Part shown: positions 1 to 18,510 of the stretch, piece after piece
How the letters are laid out: each line of letters opens with the position of its first letter
Position numbering within the stretch: position 1 is the stretch's first letter
Assembly (NCBI GenBank): GCA_038064155.1
Contig: JBBTTR010000024.1
Coordinates: 1 to 31,629, forward strand
DNA from: Patescibacteria group bacterium
GTDB taxonomy: Bacteria > Patescibacteriota > Minisyncoccia > Phycocordibacterales > UBA2163
Direction of reading: 5' to 3'
Length of the DNA stretch: 31,629 bases
Position numbers and translations under genes: made by a program
Notes under the pieces: model-generated
What the model was told of the DNA's origin: nothing
Databases searched by the model: none
What the model saw: the letters and a program-made list of their open reading frames with translations, nothing else

Positions 1-52
1 TTTAAAATGTTTTTGCTCAACCAGACCATAAATTTTTGTGTTTCGTAATTCA
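1..52 (+). repeat. Family A hairpin element, copy 1 (right part only, cut by window edge)
   Basis: Identical to the right half of copies 2 and 3, ending TAAATTTTTGTGTTTCGTAATTCA. Confidence 0.95.
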
Positions 53-71
53 AGAGTTTAATTAAAAAAAC

Positions 72-917
72 ATGGACTCAAAAAATATAATAACAATTCT
101 CGTAGCAATAATTATAGTTCTAGGATTTGGCTACTTTGGAACTATGAATATATGGAAAGGCACAATGATGAATGACGAGCGTCATGAAGACGAAGTGATA
201 GAAGAACATGAGATTTATCCCGGTGATGTCGCGGAAAAAATAAAAAACGGCGAAGATATCGTACTACTTGATGTACGAACATTGAAAGAATATGAAGAAA
301 TTCATCTTAAGAATGCACTCTTACTTCCTGTGCAGGAATTATCTGCACGGACACTTGCAGAAATCGGTTTGGGAGATAGTGCAAAAAATAAAGAAATTAT
401 TATTTATTGCAAAAGCGGCGCAAGAAGTAAGACTGCATATGACATTATGAATTCGCTTGGATATACGAATATCAAAAGCGTTGCCGGAGGGATGATACAT
501 TGGGAGGAGGACAATTATCCTTTCACTGAGGTCGGCGAGTATAAAGAAAGAAAAATTAAAATACAATCTCAAAATGATAGCACTGGTCCAAAAATTACAG
601 TTGACCGTGCATTGCATAAATTTGGTTTAATCCATCAGTATGGCGGGACGGTTGAGACAACATTCACTGTAAAAAATGAAGGAACCGAAACGCTTGAAAT
701 CGGAGACATTACTACAAGCTGTAGCTGTACTTCAGTTAAAATTTCTTCCGCGTCAATACTTGCAGGCGGTGAAGCAAAACTTACTGTGGTGTTTGACCCT
801 GATTTTCACGAAGAGCCGACAGATGTATTTAAACGTACTATCTTTATACCAACAAACGATATGAATAATCCAGAAATGGAAGTCACGATAGAAGTTGATA
901 TAGATGAAGGAAAATAA
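72..917 (+). CDS. Membrane-anchored rhodanese domain + C-terminal DUF1573-like (Ig-like, CxC) domain protein
   Basis: N-terminal hydrophobic helix; rhodanese motifs LLDVRT..EY...HL..A and active-site loop YCKSGARS; C-terminal domain with TTSCSCT and PTND..NP typical of DUF1573. Confidence 0.8.
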   Translation: MDSKNIITILVAIIIVLGFGYFGTMNIWKGTMMNDERHEDEVIEEHEIYPGDVAEKIKNGEDIVLLDVRTLKEYEEIHLKNALLLPVQELSARTLAEIGLGDSAKNKEIIIYCKSGARSKTAYDIMNSLGYTNIKSVAGGMIHWEEDNYPFTEVGEYKERKIKIQSQNDSTGPKITVDRALHKFGLIHQYGGTVETTFTVKNEGTETLEIGDITTSCSCTSVKISSASILAGGEAKLTVVFDPDFHEEPTDVFKRTIFIPTNDMNNPEMEVTIEVDIDEGK

Positions 918-931
918 TTATTAAATTACTA

Positions 932-1036
932 TGAATTACGAAACACAAAAATTTAGATCCTCGGGTCGCAAAATCTCTTTGTTTTTTAAAATGTTTTTGC
1001 TCAACCAGACCATAAATTTTTGTGTTTCGTAATTCA
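932..1036 (+). mobile_element. Family A ~105-bp hairpin element (MITE/PATE-like), copy 2
   Basis: Perfect 24-bp terminal inverted repeats TGAATTACGAAACACAAAAATTTA (932-955) / TAAATTTTTGTGTTTCGTAATTCA (1013-1036); inner GCAAAA/TTTTGC pairing; near-identical copies at 1-52, 2582-2686 and 4756-4859. Confidence 0.8.
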
Positions 1037-1056
1037 AGAAAATTAATTAAAATAAC

Positions 1057-1527
1057 ATGAATAAATACACAATAATCTTAATAATCTTTACAATAGCTGT
1101 CATAGCTTCTTCCGTAATTATTTCTGGTAATAAAAAATCAGAAGATAATAAACAAATTACATCTGTAATCACCGTAGATAAAGAATCTTATGATTTTGGA
1201 GAAGTTGATATTTTTGGTGGCAAAGTTGAGACAACATACATTATTAAAAACGAAGGGGAACAAGATGTCAAAATCACATCTGCAATAACAAGCTGTATGT
1301 GTACAGAGGGTAAGATAGGAAAGATGAAATTTAAAATGCATAGCGCTACTGGTGGATACACAATAATACCTGCTGGTGGGCAGGAGACTCTAACAGCAAT
1401 CTATGACCCGCTAGCACATGGTCCAGATGGTACTGGCAAGATAACAAGAGAACTTACGATAAAAACAAATTCTATAACAACACCTGAAATCACGGTCAAA
1501 CTTAGTGCTGATGTTGTGAAAAATTAA
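1057..1527 (+). CDS. Membrane-anchored DUF1573-like protein
   Basis: N-terminal TM helix; DFGEV..FGGKVETTY..KNEG..ITSCMCT, paralogous to the C-terminal domain of 72..917. Confidence 0.75.
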   Translation: MNKYTIILIIFTIAVIASSVIISGNKKSEDNKQITSVITVDKESYDFGEVDIFGGKVETTYIIKNEGEQDVKITSAITSCMCTEGKIGKMKFKMHSATGGYTIIPAGGQETLTAIYDPLAHGPDGTGKITRELTIKTNSITTPEITVKLSADVVKN

Positions 1528-1531
1528 TAAT

Positions 1532-2401
1532 ATGAAAACAAAGAAAATAACTCTAGGTCAAACACTCATTGCAATAGTAGGTATGGCACTCATTGCTTTT
1601 ATTATTGTAAATACGGACATAAACTCTTCAGAAAATTCAATTGCAAACTTTGAAGAATTTGTGTTGCCGATAGATGGTATTGTATTACCGATACAGTGGA
1701 ACGATTTGGGTAAACAAATGGTAGAAGTTGGTGTAATAGATAAGGAAAAATTTGAAGCGCTATACGCAAACAGAGGCGGTTTGAATAGCGAAGATATAAA
1801 ACTTCTTTATGGTGAGGATAATGAAAACATTGTAATGAATAAAGAAAATTCAGCAATATTACTCAATATATTATGGGCATTCGGACTTTCAAATAAAAAT
1901 AAAATTTTAGAGGAAGGTCCAATGGTTGATGAAAAATATGGAGGTAATGCAGGAAATTTTGCTTCAACAGGTGGATGGGGATTGTCGGTTGGAGATGCTA
2001 TGAATCATTATAGTAAATATTCATTTGTAACATTAACAGAAAATCAGCAAAAACTTGTAGTGGATATATCAAAAAATATTTATCGTCCGTGTTGTGGTAA
2101 TTCTACACATTTTCCAGATTGTAATCATGGTATGGCAATGCTTGGACTTCTAGAATTACTCGCGTCACAAGACATAAGTGAAAAAGAAATATACGATATA
2201 GCGCTTCAAGTAAATTCGTACTGGTTCCCAGACACTTATCTTACTCTTGCGGAGTATTTTGAAGGGCGCGGTACAGGTTGGGACAAAATTAATTCAAAAG
2301 AAATTTTGGGTTCAACTTATTCAAGCGGGCAAGGATACTCAAAGATTCTCAAAAAAATGAAACCGACAAAGATACGCGGTGGAGCCGGATGTAGCGTATA
2401 G
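1532..2401 (+). CDS. Membrane-anchored hypothetical protein with Cys/His motif (PCCG-x7-CNHG, C-terminal GCSV)
   Basis: 289-aa ORF 4 nt after the previous stop; N-terminal TM helix; YRPCCGNSTHFPDCNHG. Confidence 0.8.
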   Translation: MKTKKITLGQTLIAIVGMALIAFIIVNTDINSSENSIANFEEFVLPIDGIVLPIQWNDLGKQMVEVGVIDKEKFEALYANRGGLNSEDIKLLYGEDNENIVMNKENSAILLNILWAFGLSNKNKILEEGPMVDEKYGGNAGNFASTGGWGLSVGDAMNHYSKYSFVTLTENQQKLVVDISKNIYRPCCGNSTHFPDCNHGMAMLGLLELLASQDISEKEIYDIALQVNSYWFPDTYLTLAEYFEGRGTGWDKINSKEILGSTYSSGQGYSKILKKMKPTKIRGGAGCSV

Positions 2402-2413
2402 TTAAAAGACATT

Positions 2414-2606
2414 ATGAAAAATATAATTAAATTTTTACCTGCCGATTATTATCGCAAAGTTTCTATTTGGTGGCTTGGGCGCATATGTATCAAAAAACCA
2501 TTTTACGCCAAAGACAAAAGTGTATGAAATAAGCAAAAACGCGGATGATATACTTCCGCCTATCAATCTTTACTATAACTATGAATTACGAAACACAAAA
2601 ATTTAG
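2414..2606 (+). pseudogene. Frameshifted fragment of a secreted/membrane protein gene running into element copy 3
   Basis: ATG 2414 (MKNIIKFL) joins by a 1-nt shift to LPIIIAKFLFGGLGAYVSKNHFTPKTKVYEISKNADDILPP, which reads into the repeat and stops at TAG 2604-2606. Confidence 0.45.
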
Positions 2607-2686
2607 GTCCTCGGGTCGCAAAATCCCTTTGTTTTTTAAAATGTTTTTGCTCAACCAGACCATAAATTTTTGTGTTTCGTAATTCA
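2582..2686 (+). mobile_element. Family A hairpin element, copy 3
   Basis: Same 24-bp terminal IRs; differs from copy 2 at only two internal positions (AGGTC vs AGATC, ATCCC vs ATCTC). Confidence 0.8.
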
Positions 2687-2703
2687 AGATATAATAAAAA
2701 GAT

Positions 2704-4749
2704 ATGGATAATTGTCACAAACATAATCATAAGGAATCGCATGAACATGGAAGTCATACAGACGCGATGAGCAACGACTCGACCTGCCTGCCTGCGGGCA
2801 CGGCGCGGGAGTTTTTACATCGGTTTTGGATTGTTACATTTCTTCTAATACCGCTTGTGTTGAGTAATGAAAAAATTTCTGGATTATTTAATATTGATAT
2901 ATTTGGCCTGAGCAAGTTTGTACAATTTGGTATCGCCACGGTTATTTTCTATTTCTCACTTGTATTTTTTCAGCATGCGTGGCATGAAATAAAGTCCAGA
3001 AAATATGGAATGATGACATTAGTGTCGCTCGCTGTGGGCGCTGGGTATATATTTTCTGCATCTTCTACTTTTATTGCATCACTTAATGTTGAGTTCTATC
3101 TTGAAATCTCGACTCTTATCTGGGTGTTGCTTTTCGGGCATTATTTGGAAGCACGCTCAACAGCTTCTGCTGACAATGCTCTCAAAGAGGTTGCAAAGCT
3201 TTTACCTAATCGCGCGCATAAGCTTATTGGTGATGTGGAAGAAGATGTTGATACGGCAGAACTTATAGCAGGCGATATTGTGCTTGTAAAACCGGGGGAG
3301 AAAATCCCTGCCGATGGGGTGGTAATAAAAGGCACATCAAATGTTAATGAATCTCTAATAAGCGGTGAGTCAAAACCAGTTGAAAAAAGAAAAGATAATG
3401 AAGTTGTTGCAGGGTCCATCTCGCTTGACGGTTCTTTGATTGTGAGACTTTCTCGCGTTGGAGAAAACTCAACAGTAGGGAAGATTCAAAACCTAATAGC
3501 GCAAGCGCAAAAAACAAAACCAAGTTCACAGAGAATAGTAGATAAAGCGTCGGCAATACTTACACTTGTTGCGGGAGTTACAGCGCTTTTGACTATATTG
3601 GTATGGTCACTCTTACTCGGTCTTCCATTTGTGTCAGCGATAACGCTTGGTATTACAGTGCTTGTTATAGCGTGTCCTCATGCGCTTGGGCTTGCTATCC
3701 CGACCGTGACGATGATAACCACGGCACTTACTGTGAAGAACGGAGTGTTTATAAAAAACTTAGCAAAAATTGAAACGATAAGAAAAGTAAATTATGTTGT
3801 ATTTGATAAAACAGGAACTCTGACAAAAGGAGAGTTTGGTGTGACAGATGTTACTACTTTTGGCGATGTAGACGAGAAAGAGGTTTTGCGCATAGCTGGG
3901 TCAATAGATAAACATTCCTCGCATATCATAGGGCAATCAATAGTTGATTATGCGCATAAGCAAAATGTGGAATTTGCAGACATTGATGATTTTAAAAATA
4001 TTGCGGGACATGGTAGTCGTGCAAAAATATCTGGCAGTGAGTATTTTGTAGGTAATAGCGCTTTGATGCAAAAGATGGACATATCGCTTAATGAAAATGT
4101 GAAGGACATAGCGGGAGAATTTTTTGACGACGGCAAGACTGTTGTTTTTATTGCTGGGGGTAAAAATATTCTTGGAGTCATAGCGCTTGCTGATGAGATA
4201 AAGCCCGAGTCAAAAGCGACCGTAGATAAACTCCACGAACTCGGCGTGAAGGTCGCAATGTTAACTGGAGATAATGAATTTGTAGCAAAAGGTGTCGCGC
4301 AAGAACTTGGCATTGATAAATATTTTGCGCAAGTCCTACCTGAAGAAAAATACAAACACATAAAAGATTTGCAAGAGAAAGGAAATATTGTGCTTATGGC
4401 TGGTGACGGGGTAAACGATGCGCCTGCACTTACTCAAGCAGATGTAGGTGTTGCAATCGGCGCAGGAACTGACATAGCGGTTGAAGCGGGCGATGTGGTA
4501 CTTATAAAAAGTAATCCGAACGATATCGTACGGCTTATAATCCTCTCTAAAAAAGTATATGGAAAAATAATACAAAATCTTGTTTGGGCGTTTGGGTACA
4601 ATATTGTGGCAATACCTGCGGCGGCTGGTGTCTTTGCTGGGTGGGGATTTTTCCTAAGACCTGAAATCGGCGCGCTTGTTATGAGTTTTTCAACTGTGAT
4701 AGTTGTCGCGAACGCAATGATGTTAAAGAGAGTAAATTTGGATGTGTAA
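2704..4749 (+). CDS. copB: Copper-translocating P1B-type ATPase (CopB/P1B-3 type)
   Basis: His-rich N-terminus; TGES-like SGES; CPH in TM6 (IACPHALGLA); DKTGTLT; GDGVNDAP; YN and MSFST in the last helices. Confidence 0.9.
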   Translation: MDNCHKHNHKESHEHGSHTDAMSNDSTCLPAGTAREFLHRFWIVTFLLIPLVLSNEKISGLFNIDIFGLSKFVQFGIATVIFYFSLVFFQHAWHEIKSRKYGMMTLVSLAVGAGYIFSASSTFIASLNVEFYLEISTLIWVLLFGHYLEARSTASADNALKEVAKLLPNRAHKLIGDVEEDVDTAELIAGDIVLVKPGEKIPADGVVIKGTSNVNESLISGESKPVEKRKDNEVVAGSISLDGSLIVRLSRVGENSTVGKIQNLIAQAQKTKPSSQRIVDKASAILTLVAGVTALLTILVWSLLLGLPFVSAITLGITVLVIACPHALGLAIPTVTMITTALTVKNGVFIKNLAKIETIRKVNYVVFDKTGTLTKGEFGVTDVTTFGDVDEKEVLRIAGSIDKHSSHIIGQSIVDYAHKQNVEFADIDDFKNIAGHGSRAKISGSEYFVGNSALMQKMDISLNENVKDIAGEFFDDGKTVVFIAGGKNILGVIALADEIKPESKATVDKLHELGVKVAMLTGDNEFVAKGVAQELGIDKYFAQVLPEEKYKHIKDLQEKGNIVLMAGDGVNDAPALTQADVGVAIGAGTDIAVEAGDVVLIKSNPNDIVRLIILSKKVYGKIIQNLVWAFGYNIVAIPAAAGVFAGWGFFLRPEIGALVMSFSTVIVVANAMMLKRVNLDV

Positions 4750-4755
4750 ATATTA

Positions 4756-4859
4756 TGAATTACGAAACACAAAAATTTATGGTCTGGTTGAGCAAAAACA
4801 TTTTAAAAACAAAGAGATTTTGCGACCCGAGGACCTAAATTTTTGTGTTTCGTAATTCA
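4756..4859 (-). mobile_element. Family A hairpin element, copy 4 (inverted)
   Basis: Reverse complement of copies 2/3, one T shorter in the internal T-run. Confidence 0.8.
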
Positions 4860-4881
4860 TAGTAAGATAACTATTTTTTAA

Positions 4882-4890
4882 TGGTATAAT
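4882..4890 (+). promoter_or_regulatory. Extended -10 promoter (TGGTATAAT) 9 nt before the helicase ATG
   Basis: TGn-TATAAT consensus; no SD between it and the ATG. Confidence 0.6.
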
Positions 4891-4899
4891 GGCTTCATT

Positions 4900-6549
4900 A
4901 TGAAACAAAATGAGGCGTTAGATATATTAAAAATGGGGGTAAATGTTTTTCTTACAGGCCCTGCCGGGAGTGGTAAAACATATGTTTTAAATGACTATGT
5001 TAATTTTCTTAAATCTAAAAATGTAGAGGTAGGCATTACCGCCTCAACAGGAATCGCGGCGACTCATATAGGAGGAATGACAATCCACTCATGGGCGGGA
5101 ATCGGCATTAAAGACAGTATGTCAAACAGCGAGATCCGTGATTTGTTTAAAAAAAAGCATTTAGGAGGACGCTTCAAGCGGACAAAAGTGCTTGTTATAG
5201 ACGAAGTTTCAATGTTGCATCATTTTCGCTTGGATATGGTGGATAGGGTGTGTAAGATGTTTAAAGAAAACAGCGCGCCGTTTGGTGGAATGCAAGTAAT
5301 ACTTGTTGGAGATTTTTTTCAGCTTCCACCGATATCGCGTGGGAGCGAGAAAGCACATTTTGTACATCGTTCTGATGTTTGGAGCGCGATGGGACTAAAA
5401 GTGTGTTACTTGGATGAACAGTATAGATATGAAGACGATATGCTTCTAAATCTTTTGAATAATATTCGCGCGAATAATACGGGAGAACATACGCTTGAAC
5501 CACTTCGCGCTCGGTATAAAAAGAATATTAAAGGGGTGCCTATGCCGACAAAACTTTATACGCACAATATGGATGTAGACGCGATTAATGAAAGAGAACT
5601 TGATAAATTGCCGGGGAATAATAAAATATACGAAATGAGAAGTCATGGAAACCGCGCGCTCGTGGATACATTAAAGCGAAGTTGCCTCGCGCCGGAGTAT
5701 TTGTATTTGAAAAAAAACGCCGTGGTGATATTCGTAAAAAATAATTTTGAAAAAGGATATGTAAACGGCACTCTCGGTAAAGTGATAGACTTTGAGTTTT
5801 CAGAGAAATATGGAGATAAATTACCAATAGTAGAGATTACAAAAGGTGAGAAGATTTTAGCGTCTCCGGAGAGTTGGAGGATAGAAGAAGAAGGTAAAAC
5901 AAAAGCTGAGATTAGTCAAATCCCGCTCCGTTTAGCATGGGCTATAACAGTGCACAAGAGTCAAGGAATGAGTCTAGATGCGGCAGAGATTGACCTCTCA
6001 AAGGCATTTGTAGAAGGGCAAGGGTATGTAGCGCTCTCTCGCGTGAGGACTCTTTCAGGACTCCGGTTAATGGGTTTAAATGACATGGCGCTAAAGGTAA
6101 ATGAAGAGGTTTTGGAGTTTGATAAAGAGTTGATAAGAGATTCTAAAAAGGTGACTAAAGAGTTGAAAGATTTTGCCAAAGATACTAAAGCTAAAAAACA
6201 TGAGGAATTTTTGGCATCAATAGCGCCGACTCAGGCAGATATGGAAGAAAAACTTTCTACATATGAAAGAACTAAACTTTTACTTGAACAAGAGTTTTCA
6301 ATAGATGAAATTGCAAAGAAAAGAGAAATGACAAAAGGAACTGTCGTTGGGCATATAGAAAAATTAATAGAACTTGAACAATGTCCGAATATTAATCATA
6401 TCAAAAAGGCGATTGAAGAAGAGCGATTGGAAAAAATCAAGAAAGCTTTCAAGAAATCAGGCGATACAAAACTCTCGCCAGTGCGAAACATTCTCGGAAA
6501 CAGTTTTTCTTTTGATGAACTTCGTTTGGCTAGGTTGTTTTTAGATTAA
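4900..6549 (+). CDS. Pif1-family SF1B DNA helicase with C-terminal helix-turn-helix domain
   Basis: GPAGSGKT, DEVSM, GDFFQLPP, YVNGTLG, TVHKSQGMS, YVALSR; C-terminal TYERTKLLLEQ..IDEIAKKREMTKGTVVGHI HTH-like segment. Confidence 0.9.
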   Translation: MKQNEALDILKMGVNVFLTGPAGSGKTYVLNDYVNFLKSKNVEVGITASTGIAATHIGGMTIHSWAGIGIKDSMSNSEIRDLFKKKHLGGRFKRTKVLVIDEVSMLHHFRLDMVDRVCKMFKENSAPFGGMQVILVGDFFQLPPISRGSEKAHFVHRSDVWSAMGLKVCYLDEQYRYEDDMLLNLLNNIRANNTGEHTLEPLRARYKKNIKGVPMPTKLYTHNMDVDAINERELDKLPGNNKIYEMRSHGNRALVDTLKRSCLAPEYLYLKKNAVVIFVKNNFEKGYVNGTLGKVIDFEFSEKYGDKLPIVEITKGEKILASPESWRIEEEGKTKAEISQIPLRLAWAITVHKSQGMSLDAAEIDLSKAFVEGQGYVALSRVRTLSGLRLMGLNDMALKVNEEVLEFDKELIRDSKKVTKELKDFAKDTKAKKHEEFLASIAPTQADMEEKLSTYERTKLLLEQEFSIDEIAKKREMTKGTVVGHIEKLIELEQCPNINHIKKAIEEERLEKIKKAFKKSGDTKLSPVRNILGNSFSFDELRLARLFLD

Positions 6550-18258: not shown

Positions 18259-18345
18259 GATTAATTCTTACACGGCTAATAAATACAATACTTCGCATAC
18301 TACTACAAAACTTAACATTTTGCAATTATCTGGTATAATTACTTT

Positions 18346-18495
18346 GAGTTATCGAAATAATCGCAACAAATTTTTCATAAAAGAGAGTTCGCTTAAAGAC
18401 GAGCTTTGCATTGCATAGCGGTAGCTATGGAAAATTAGTATGAAAGATGAGCTCGCGCCTATAATGAAGCCATAGTAGAGTATATTTCGTAATTC
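18346..18495 (+). repeat. Diverged, longer (150-bp) relative of family A, or a structured ncRNA
   Basis: Left end TTACTTTGAGTTATCGAAA vs family A TTACTATGAATTACGAAA; right end TTTCGTAATTC identical; internal stems CGAGCT/AGCTCG and CATAGC/GCTATG. Confidence 0.55.
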
Positions 18496-18510
18496 TAAGT
18501 ATATAAAAAT

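Follow-up and report, generated by a model that had tools for sequence, protein, structure and literature searches.

Four near-identical hairpin-forming repeats lie exactly between the genes of a metal-resistance cluster in the first 4.9 kb of contig C24 (JBBTTR010000024.1) of a groundwater bacterium, a member of the Campbellbacteria, and the question raised by this locus is whether the repeats assembled the cluster, as a preliminary description of the region proposed, or landed in it. The window, the whole 31,629-nt stretch of DNA analyzed here, is G000:C24:1-31629, the first 31.6 kb of that contig, G000 being the source genome (457,830 bp in 45 contigs). The repeats are copies of a MITE (miniature inverted-repeat transposable element), one that duplicates 6-7 bp of AT-rich target DNA by a staggered cut. 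Very probably a DDE-type transposase mobilizes it in trans, its copies landed independently in an already existing copper-resistance operon, and one of them, copy D, is a recombinant.

The 24-nt end sequence of the element is TGAATTACGAAACACAAAAATTTA. The window has seven exact matches to this terminal inverted repeat (TIR), at 29-52 (-), 932-955 (+), 1013-1036 (-), 2582-2605 (+), 2663-2686 (-), 4756-4779 (+) and 4836-4859 (-), and no match occurs in 100 shuffles of the window. Together they make up a half element (1-52) and three full ones (932-1036, +; 2582-2686, +; 4756-4859, -), and a scan for TIR matches finds no further copy in the rest of the window, beyond the first 4.9 kb. The positions, perfect 24-bp TIRs, near-identity (at most three base differences among the window copies) and absence of other copies given in the preliminary description are all confirmed. 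Its 105-bp extents delimit the hairpin correctly, but the true unit, as defined by where the flanking duplication starts, is 3 nt longer at each end (CTA...AGA), and the copy it placed at 1-52 is present, but as the right half of a full copy interrupted by the contig start rather than a short copy. The copies, and the duplication flanking copy B, are as follows.

1-55, + strand: copy A, the right half of the MITE (52 nt) plus the AGA terminus, interrupted by the contig start; 100% match to element positions 54-105.
923-928, no strand: left target-site duplication of copy B, AAATTA, 6 bp (TAAATTA/cta ... aga/AAATTAA).
929-1039, + strand: copy B, a full 111-bp MITE, CTA plus a 105-bp hairpin with 24-bp perfect TIRs plus AGA.
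1040-1045, no strand: right target-site duplication of copy B, AAATTA, in the same context.
2579-2689, + strand: copy C, a full MITE, 17 nt 5' of the P-type ATPase start.
4753-4862, - strand: copy D, a full inverted MITE with a 104-bp core at 4756-4859 and termini CTA...TAA.

The mobile unit is therefore 110-111 bp, a 104/105-bp hairpin with asymmetric 3-nt tips, and full units span 929-1039, 2579-2689 and 4753-4862, with the outer limits set by the start of the duplication. Over 115 nt, B and C share 97% identity, and copy D is the reverse complement of B/C at 93-97% identity. Each window copy folds into a single long hairpin (-38 to -45 kcal/mol, z ~ -9 to -10); the entire 110-111 bp is one imperfect hairpin and has no room for an open reading frame (ORF). 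Perfect 24-bp TIRs are found in every G000 copy, and in copies from one other host, LBYO01, the inverted repeat extends to the tips (CCCC...GGGG). A whole-window scan with Rfam covariance models (E <= 1) gives no match at the four repeat sites, and a sigma-70 promoter/terminator consensus scan of window positions 1-5200 returns fewer promoter-like sites than shuffled sequences do, none of them inside the element.

Mobility is documented by direct repeats that lie just outside the CTA and AGA tips of the G000 copies. When left flanks (-10 to -4) are compared with right flanks (+4 to +10) in 106 oriented copies, exactly seven columns match at 63-69%, adjoining columns at 10-34% and shuffled left/right flank pairs at 44.6 +/- 1.6%. 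The duplication is a perfect 7/7 in 39 of the 106 copies and 6/7 in twelve, many others having a 6-bp duplication in a shifted register, and the duplicated target is AT-rich, with the consensus roughly TAAWTTA. The exact boundaries of the element (the 104/105-bp hairpin with a further 3 nt on either side) and the 7-bp duplication follow from a nested insertion in the sister species (G003:C21), where one copy lies at the centre of another (...TCTTATA/TCG-[104 nt]-CAG/TCTTATA...): intact copies carry a single TCTTCTA where this outer copy has TCTTATA duplicated around a 110-bp insert. Pairing half-copies at contig ends by their 7-mers provides an independent test of the duplication. Two of the predicted joins, C15-C7 (TTTATGA) and C29-C45 (AAATAAA), are spanned by L231 and L188, respectively, each a contig from another assembly of the same site; a third, C44-C11, is based on the distinctive TCGCATA, and a further join, C42-C37, is seen in an independent contig (L151).

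The copies are not confined to the metal-resistance cluster. G000 has 17 full copies over 13 contigs, and ~31 of its 90 contig ends terminate inside a copy, left and right halves in roughly equal numbers; the total is ~33-48 copies, or ~1 per 10-14 kb, on at least 25 contigs, adjoining unrelated genes and in both orientations. Occurrence genome-wide with no association to cargo is what a comparison with the whole genome and its relatives reveals, the very outcome that the preliminary description had set against its own proposal of cargo-linked elements. Four copies in 4.9 kb do exceed the ~0.36 expected from the genome-wide density (by our own Poisson estimate P ~5e-4 per 4.9-kb stretch and ~0.05 genome-wide), but equally dense stretches exist elsewhere, with 3 copies in 3.8 kb of C44 and ~1 copy per 5 kb in G003.

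Among 40 related genomes, the MITE is restricted to two species of the same genus, the sister species G003 (at least 63 copies, 91-95% identity) and G006 (~10 copies, 83-91% identity), and was found neither in the six other species of the genus that were searched nor in a further 31 families of the order. Besides G003 and G006, four further Campbellbacteria/Parcubacteria MAGs contain copies. A scan for the exact pattern, with one genome for each species, identified as hosts the Candidatus Campbellbacteria metagenome-assembled genomes (MAGs) MFAC01 and PFAA01, Parcubacteria GW2011_GWA1_40_21 (LBYO01) and the Patescibacteria MAGs JAGXAA01 and JBBUED01, and more than 119 groundwater metagenome contigs also have the MITE. 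Because mean pairwise identity is 0.97 within G000, 0.88 within G003 and 0.87 between the two, the sequences indicate that the G000 copies arose in a recent burst from one master copy, with those of G003 representing older, diverse subfamilies. The earlier suggestion of recently active, non-autonomous elements is supported by the 97% within-genome identity, the target-site duplications, the nested insertion and the lack of an ORF.

Other sequences match the element only in part. A 170-bp variant in L161 (4239-4408) and L242 has ~65 nt of unrelated, GC-richer sequence in place of part of the left half. An exact match to the 24-nt G000-type TIR at L140:4214-4237, an IMG/VR contig, is within a 607-codon viral ORF with no nearby second TIR, and is taken as chance. 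At window positions 18331-18499 there is a rod-like hairpin of ~165 nt that starts 6 nt past TGGTATAAT and has ends loosely like those of the MITE. It occurs once in the genome and in none of the fetched loci, and was therefore rejected as a family member; it has no Rfam match and is possibly a small RNA gene.

The genes among which the window copies lie are as follows.

72-917, + strand: ORF1, a membrane-anchored rhodanese and DUF1573 protein (Pfam PF00581, PF07610).
1057-1527, + strand: ORF2, a DUF1573 protein (Pfam).
1532-2401, + strand: ORF3, a conserved Cys-rich protein of no Pfam family, with an ortholog in G006:C18.
2704-4749, + strand: a heavy-metal P-type ATPase, CopB-like (PF00122, PF00702), with a His-rich N-terminus and a CPH motif.
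4900-6549, + strand: a PIF1-like helicase, outside the metal cluster, at which synteny with G003 and G004 resumes.

Copy B is located between ORF1 (stop codon at 915-917) and ORF2 (ATG at 1057). Measured from the hairpin cores, the next ATG is 19, 20 and 17 nt from copies A, B and C, as first reported, and 40 nt from copy D, which as a unit is 3 nt from the ATPase stop codon (core, 6 nt) and 37 nt from the helicase ATG. In G006:C18, a gene for a CsoR-family repressor heads a series of ORF1, ORF2 and ORF3 orthologs, that of ORF1 having no rhodanese part, with no MITE copy. Because the same gene order exists there without any copy, the elements appear, from this sequence comparison, to have invaded a pre-existing copper operon; the special link to the metal cluster, and the role in assembling it, that had been proposed for them are not supported, given this and the copies genome-wide that have no cargo association. 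Presence/absence differences are apparent at two orthologous sites: ORF1 and ORF2 adjoin without copy B in G006:C18, and the helicase promoter is without copy D in G003:C13, where the same extended -10 promoter and start are present with other neighbours and no MITE. The intergenic DNA at these sites is too diverged for a base-exact alignment of the empty site.

ORF1 has its rhodanese domain fused ahead of DUF1573, the G006 ortholog (153 amino acids) being the DUF1573 part alone. The G006 csoR (L041, 1040-1370) is behind a TACCC...GGGTA palindrome (TACCCCCATAGGGTA) that overlaps a TATAAT. A csoR gene 5' of copy A was sought by tblastn and not found in the G000 assembly; if located between two copies, the gene would be on a contig of <1 kb that would probably have been lost in binning. 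Within the 180-nt gap between ORF3 and copy C, window positions 2414-2581 have a 37-codon ORF and an overlapping frame that together resemble a frameshifted small membrane protein.

Copy D stands apart from the other full copies. The AGA terminus is present in 16 of the 17 full G000 copies; copy D, the exception, ends in TAA, the reverse complement of TTA, a left-tip variant seen in three other copies, so that D is left-type at both ends. Its flanking 7-mers match at 4 of 7 positions, with no clean duplication, and the only other TAA copy, at the C42/C37 junction (L151), is likewise without duplication. Synteny with G003 breaks exactly at copy D. Two left-type tips and unrelated flanks suggest that D is a chimera, probably generated by a deletion between two inversely oriented copies whose identical TIRs were used as direct repeats. 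This would imply that a + copy, oriented like A-C, once lay after the ATPase, and that a - copy lay ahead of the helicase. Neither A nor D has a reciprocal duplication of its outer flank in the assembly, the outer flank of A itself being lost at the contig start. Of the shuffling envisaged in the preliminary description, what survives is a possible rearrangement at D, to which the two left-type termini, the missing duplication and the G003 synteny break would point; the cluster itself was not built by the elements. In a metagenome contig (L255:1-1312), a homologous ATPase gene has, 177 nt downstream, a single left TIR that is inverted and tipped with TTA, possibly the remnant of an insertion in the position corresponding to that of copy D.

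None of the 184 distinct copies from all sources is inside a called ORF. For the AGA end, the neighbour is a gene start in 84 cases and a gene end in 42; for the CTA end, the respective counts are 50 and 65 (Fisher p = 4e-4, an optimistic value given crude ORF calls and the orthology of some copies), and the same trend holds in G000 alone, with starts to ends at 22 to 11 for the AGA end and 11 to 18 for the CTA end. Of 98 AGA ends facing starts, 38 are within 30 nt of the start codon. The spacing of 17-20 nt before an ATG at this locus reflects insertion into AT-rich heptamers just 5' of starts, together with a moderate orientation preference, and is not a cassette boundary.

At TIR positions 16-17, the arms carry matched variants (CAC/GTG, CGC/GCG, TGC/GCA and TAC/GTA), with G·T and A·C intermediates of the stem making up sizeable subfamilies, and double changes extend to the interior stem (GGG/CC vs GAA/AT). 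Over 97 distinct sequences, 15 of 40 stem pairs have double changes, compared to 7.4 +/- 1.5 in shuffles (0 of 500 reaching the observed number) and 4-6 in slid controls, counts that are inflated by sequence relatedness. The pattern is suggestive of pairing kept by compensatory changes, and the repair of mismatches while a hairpin is extruded, or a fold-back under selection, would each account for it. Of 134 copies scorable for both interior and tip orientation, 17 carry the interior flipped with respect to tips and arms (CTG...AGA vs TCT...CAG in G003, for example); recombination between an element's own TIRs would produce such flips.

The following scheme would account for most of these observations. 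A DDE-type transposase, encoded outside the assembled genomes, would act on the MITE in trans, with a staggered cut at an AT-rich target duplicating 6-7 bp; the four cluster copies would have arrived separately, in AT-rich stretches of promoter and spacer within the existing operon, and recombination between two inversely oriented copies would have left copy D. We infer the DDE enzyme from the staggered-cut duplication by itself. Once co-transcribed, the 24-bp perfect stems would become RNase III substrates, as known for Correia elements, and as G000 encodes RNase III, the expression of genes on the two sides of a copy may be uncoupled or modulated by it, a regulatory role offered here as a hypothesis.

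Several observations weigh against this scheme. The CTATGAATTACGAAA... TIR would bound an autonomous relative, but no TIR-bounded element of 0.7-3 kb is present in ~230 loci, the search having covered G000, five further MAGs, 119 contigs from metagenomes and IMG/VR; each TIR without a partner was a degenerate or truncated MITE, the 65-nt-insert variant (L161) or the viral-ORF match. The Pfam DDE families PF01609, PF12762, PF00872 and PF13612, a subset of transposase families, are absent from five MITE-bearing genomes, the host genomes searched being 59-96% complete. The sole DDE transposase in G000 belongs to a multi-copy IS481-family element with ends unrelated to the MITE. A base-exact empty site was not recovered from a near-identical strain, the Hainich contigs all being collinear with G000. 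Two of the window copies have poor duplications, just 5 bp for copy C (TATAA at 2574-2578 and 2690-2694) and none for D. Finally, a purely selfish, DDE-moved MITE gives no reason to expect an orientation bias or compensatory stem changes.

The IS481-family gene is truncated at C9:2-658 (G000:C9:1-700, L130), and ends of this insertion sequence (IS) are located at C43:1-57, C23:2969-3020 and C40:1040-1100. Its ends, ...GGGTGGACTCAATCA and ...GCAATATGTATGTGAAC, differ from those of the MITE, and it is present in G008, which has no MITE match, and not found in the MITE-rich G003; it was rejected as the partner. The rve matches in G000 and G041 belong to ISs with ends also unrelated to the MITE, and L209, which continues 7.9 kb past a MITE into a region missing from the bin, has no transposase there. 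Like the MITE, the IS481-family repeat breaks the assembly. In 4 of 4 copies, a TTGAC stands 5 variable bases beyond its right end, ...GGGTGGACTCAATCA, so that the IS either inserts just upstream of -35-like boxes or carries an outward -35. A second assembly-breaking repeat unrelated to the MITE, a long palindrome (AACTATGCCAATATACTGGTATAGTT...) adjoining CATTCCGCAACCCGCAACTCAAC, occurs at the C6 end, C10 start, C22 start, C32 end, C30 end and near position 250 of C43.

Might the hairpins instead have assembled or shuffled the metal genes, either as attC-like recombination sites or as the transposon ends of a composite unit bounded by A and D? The local density, the inverse orientation of A and D, the break in G003 synteny at D and its lack of a clean duplication would all fit. 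Recombination at attC sites does not, however, generate target-site duplications, which are present; copies adjoin unrelated genes on at least 25 contigs in both orientations, other stretches are as dense, G006 has the gene order with no copy, and neither outer flank has a reciprocal duplication, so this explanation is very improbable. Less probable still is that these are hairpins like those of REP elements or PATEs, moved as single strands by RAYT- or IS200-like nucleases and inserted 3' of TTAC or TAAC as is IS608. Two HUH nuclease genes are located at 22.5-31.1 kb of the window, the left flank is often TTAC or TAAC, the whole element is a hairpin with pairing kept by compensatory changes, and there is the missing DDE partner. 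But the clear 6-7 bp duplication excludes IS608-type insertion, as IS200/IS605 and REP elements make none; the 'C' of TTAC is the element's own CTA tip, with TTA/TAA the end of the duplicated target and repeated on the other side, and the HUH genes in the window have their own, unrelated cognate palindromes.

Whatever their origin as mobile DNA, the copies could now function as 5' leader or intergenic RNA hairpins, or as promoter modules, with selection accounting for both the orientation bias and the pairing. The 2:1 excess of AGA ends facing gene starts, their proximity to start codons, the 15 compensated stem pairs, the RNase III encoded by G000 and the promoters and RNase III sites supplied by Correia elements (PMC10969869) are in favor, whereas one third of copies are oppositely oriented or face gene ends, the consensus scan finds no sigma-70-like promoter in the element, and arm-to-arm hairpin repair could give the same compensatory pattern without selection, with relatedness inflating the counts. 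We regard this as unlikely to be the principal explanation, although it deserves some weight. A departure from classical IS transposition is quite doubtful. In that case, movement would depend on the hairpin (single-strand or flip-flop transposition) or on an enzyme supplied from outside, by the host bacterium or a phage of the episymbiont, with copies possibly co-opted as promoter-proximal regulatory hairpins of ultra-small genomes, a reading prompted by the lack of a TIR-matched parent in six host genomes and the metagenome sample, by compensatory upkeep beyond the TIRs and by the interior flips. A MITE mobilized in trans by a DDE enzyme is very much the preferred reading.

The value of the element is chiefly practical, for assembly and annotation, and the biological surprise is modest. 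It is the main cause of fragmentation of these MAGs, with about one third of the contig ends of the short-read assembly stopping in it, and its target-site duplications offer a means of scaffolding them. In annotation, such repeats, where clustered, should not be taken for cassette boundaries. Promoter-proximal insertions, including those in the copper-homeostasis operon, may alter expression, and a 0.46-Mb genome here tolerates a recently expanding selfish element at ~1% of its DNA, a fraction that is nearly 2% in the sister species.

MITEs are well known in bacteria, and the testable features that define them are all present here: small size (below the usual ~300-500 bp), no coding capacity, TIRs, target-site duplication, dispersed copies that are more similar within a genome than between genomes, and presence/absence differences. 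An autonomous IS with matching TIRs, which is usual for a MITE though not obligatory, was not found in the ~230 loci. Our literature search found no description of a MITE in the Candidate Phyla Radiation/Patescibacteria, and a census of 183,232 RefSeq genomes has no mention of these phyla (PMC11602168); within the literature searched, this otherwise ordinary kind of element is apparently new to the Candidate Phyla Radiation.

Some of the known repeat systems resemble the element in part. Rickettsia palindromic elements are likewise palindromic mobile repeats that have multiplied in a very small, host-dependent genome. They are often in frame within genes, whereas this MITE is in none of the called ORFs. 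REP/BIME elements with RAYT, and the IS200/IS605-derived PATEs, are also intergenic hairpin repeats, and HUH nuclease genes are present in the same window, but those elements do not duplicate their target, their palindromes are shorter and their head tetranucleotide is conserved, whereas the MITE has 24-bp TIRs and duplicates 6-7 bp. The attC sites of integrons (Vibrio cholerae repeats) are near-identical imperfect palindromes of ~120 bp between array genes; they have, however, one orientation in one array beside intI and no duplication, whereas the MITE is dispersed in both orientations with its target duplicated.

The pneumococcal RUP elements are ~107-bp fold-back elements with TIRs and target duplications that cluster in intergenic DNA and insert into one another (PMC10969869). 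The MITE shares with them, and with other IS-derived MITEs such as MITEAba12 (PMC6382973), the fold-back structure, TIRs, target duplication, intergenic location and nested insertion; they differ in having an identified parent IS with matching TIRs, for which six genomes and the metagenome sample gave no counterpart here. Correia elements (CREE/NEMIS) of Neisseria are non-coding MITEs of 100-155 bp with ~26-bp TIRs, whose near-identical copies make up 1-2% of a small genome (PMC10969869). They are mostly just 5' of genes, supply promoters and form transcript hairpins cut by RNase III, and have a reported internal inversion and no known cognate transposase (PMC10969869). The element described here resembles them in size, TIRs, copy number, proximity to gene starts, hairpin, interior inversion and the lack of a found transposase. 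Promoters and IHF sites have been shown for Correia elements only. Because Correia elements duplicate TA, and this MITE 6-7 bp, it is outside the Correia family, the two being in different phyla. For RUP, the parent is IS630-Spn1. In behavior, Correia and RUP elements are the closest known counterparts of the MITE.

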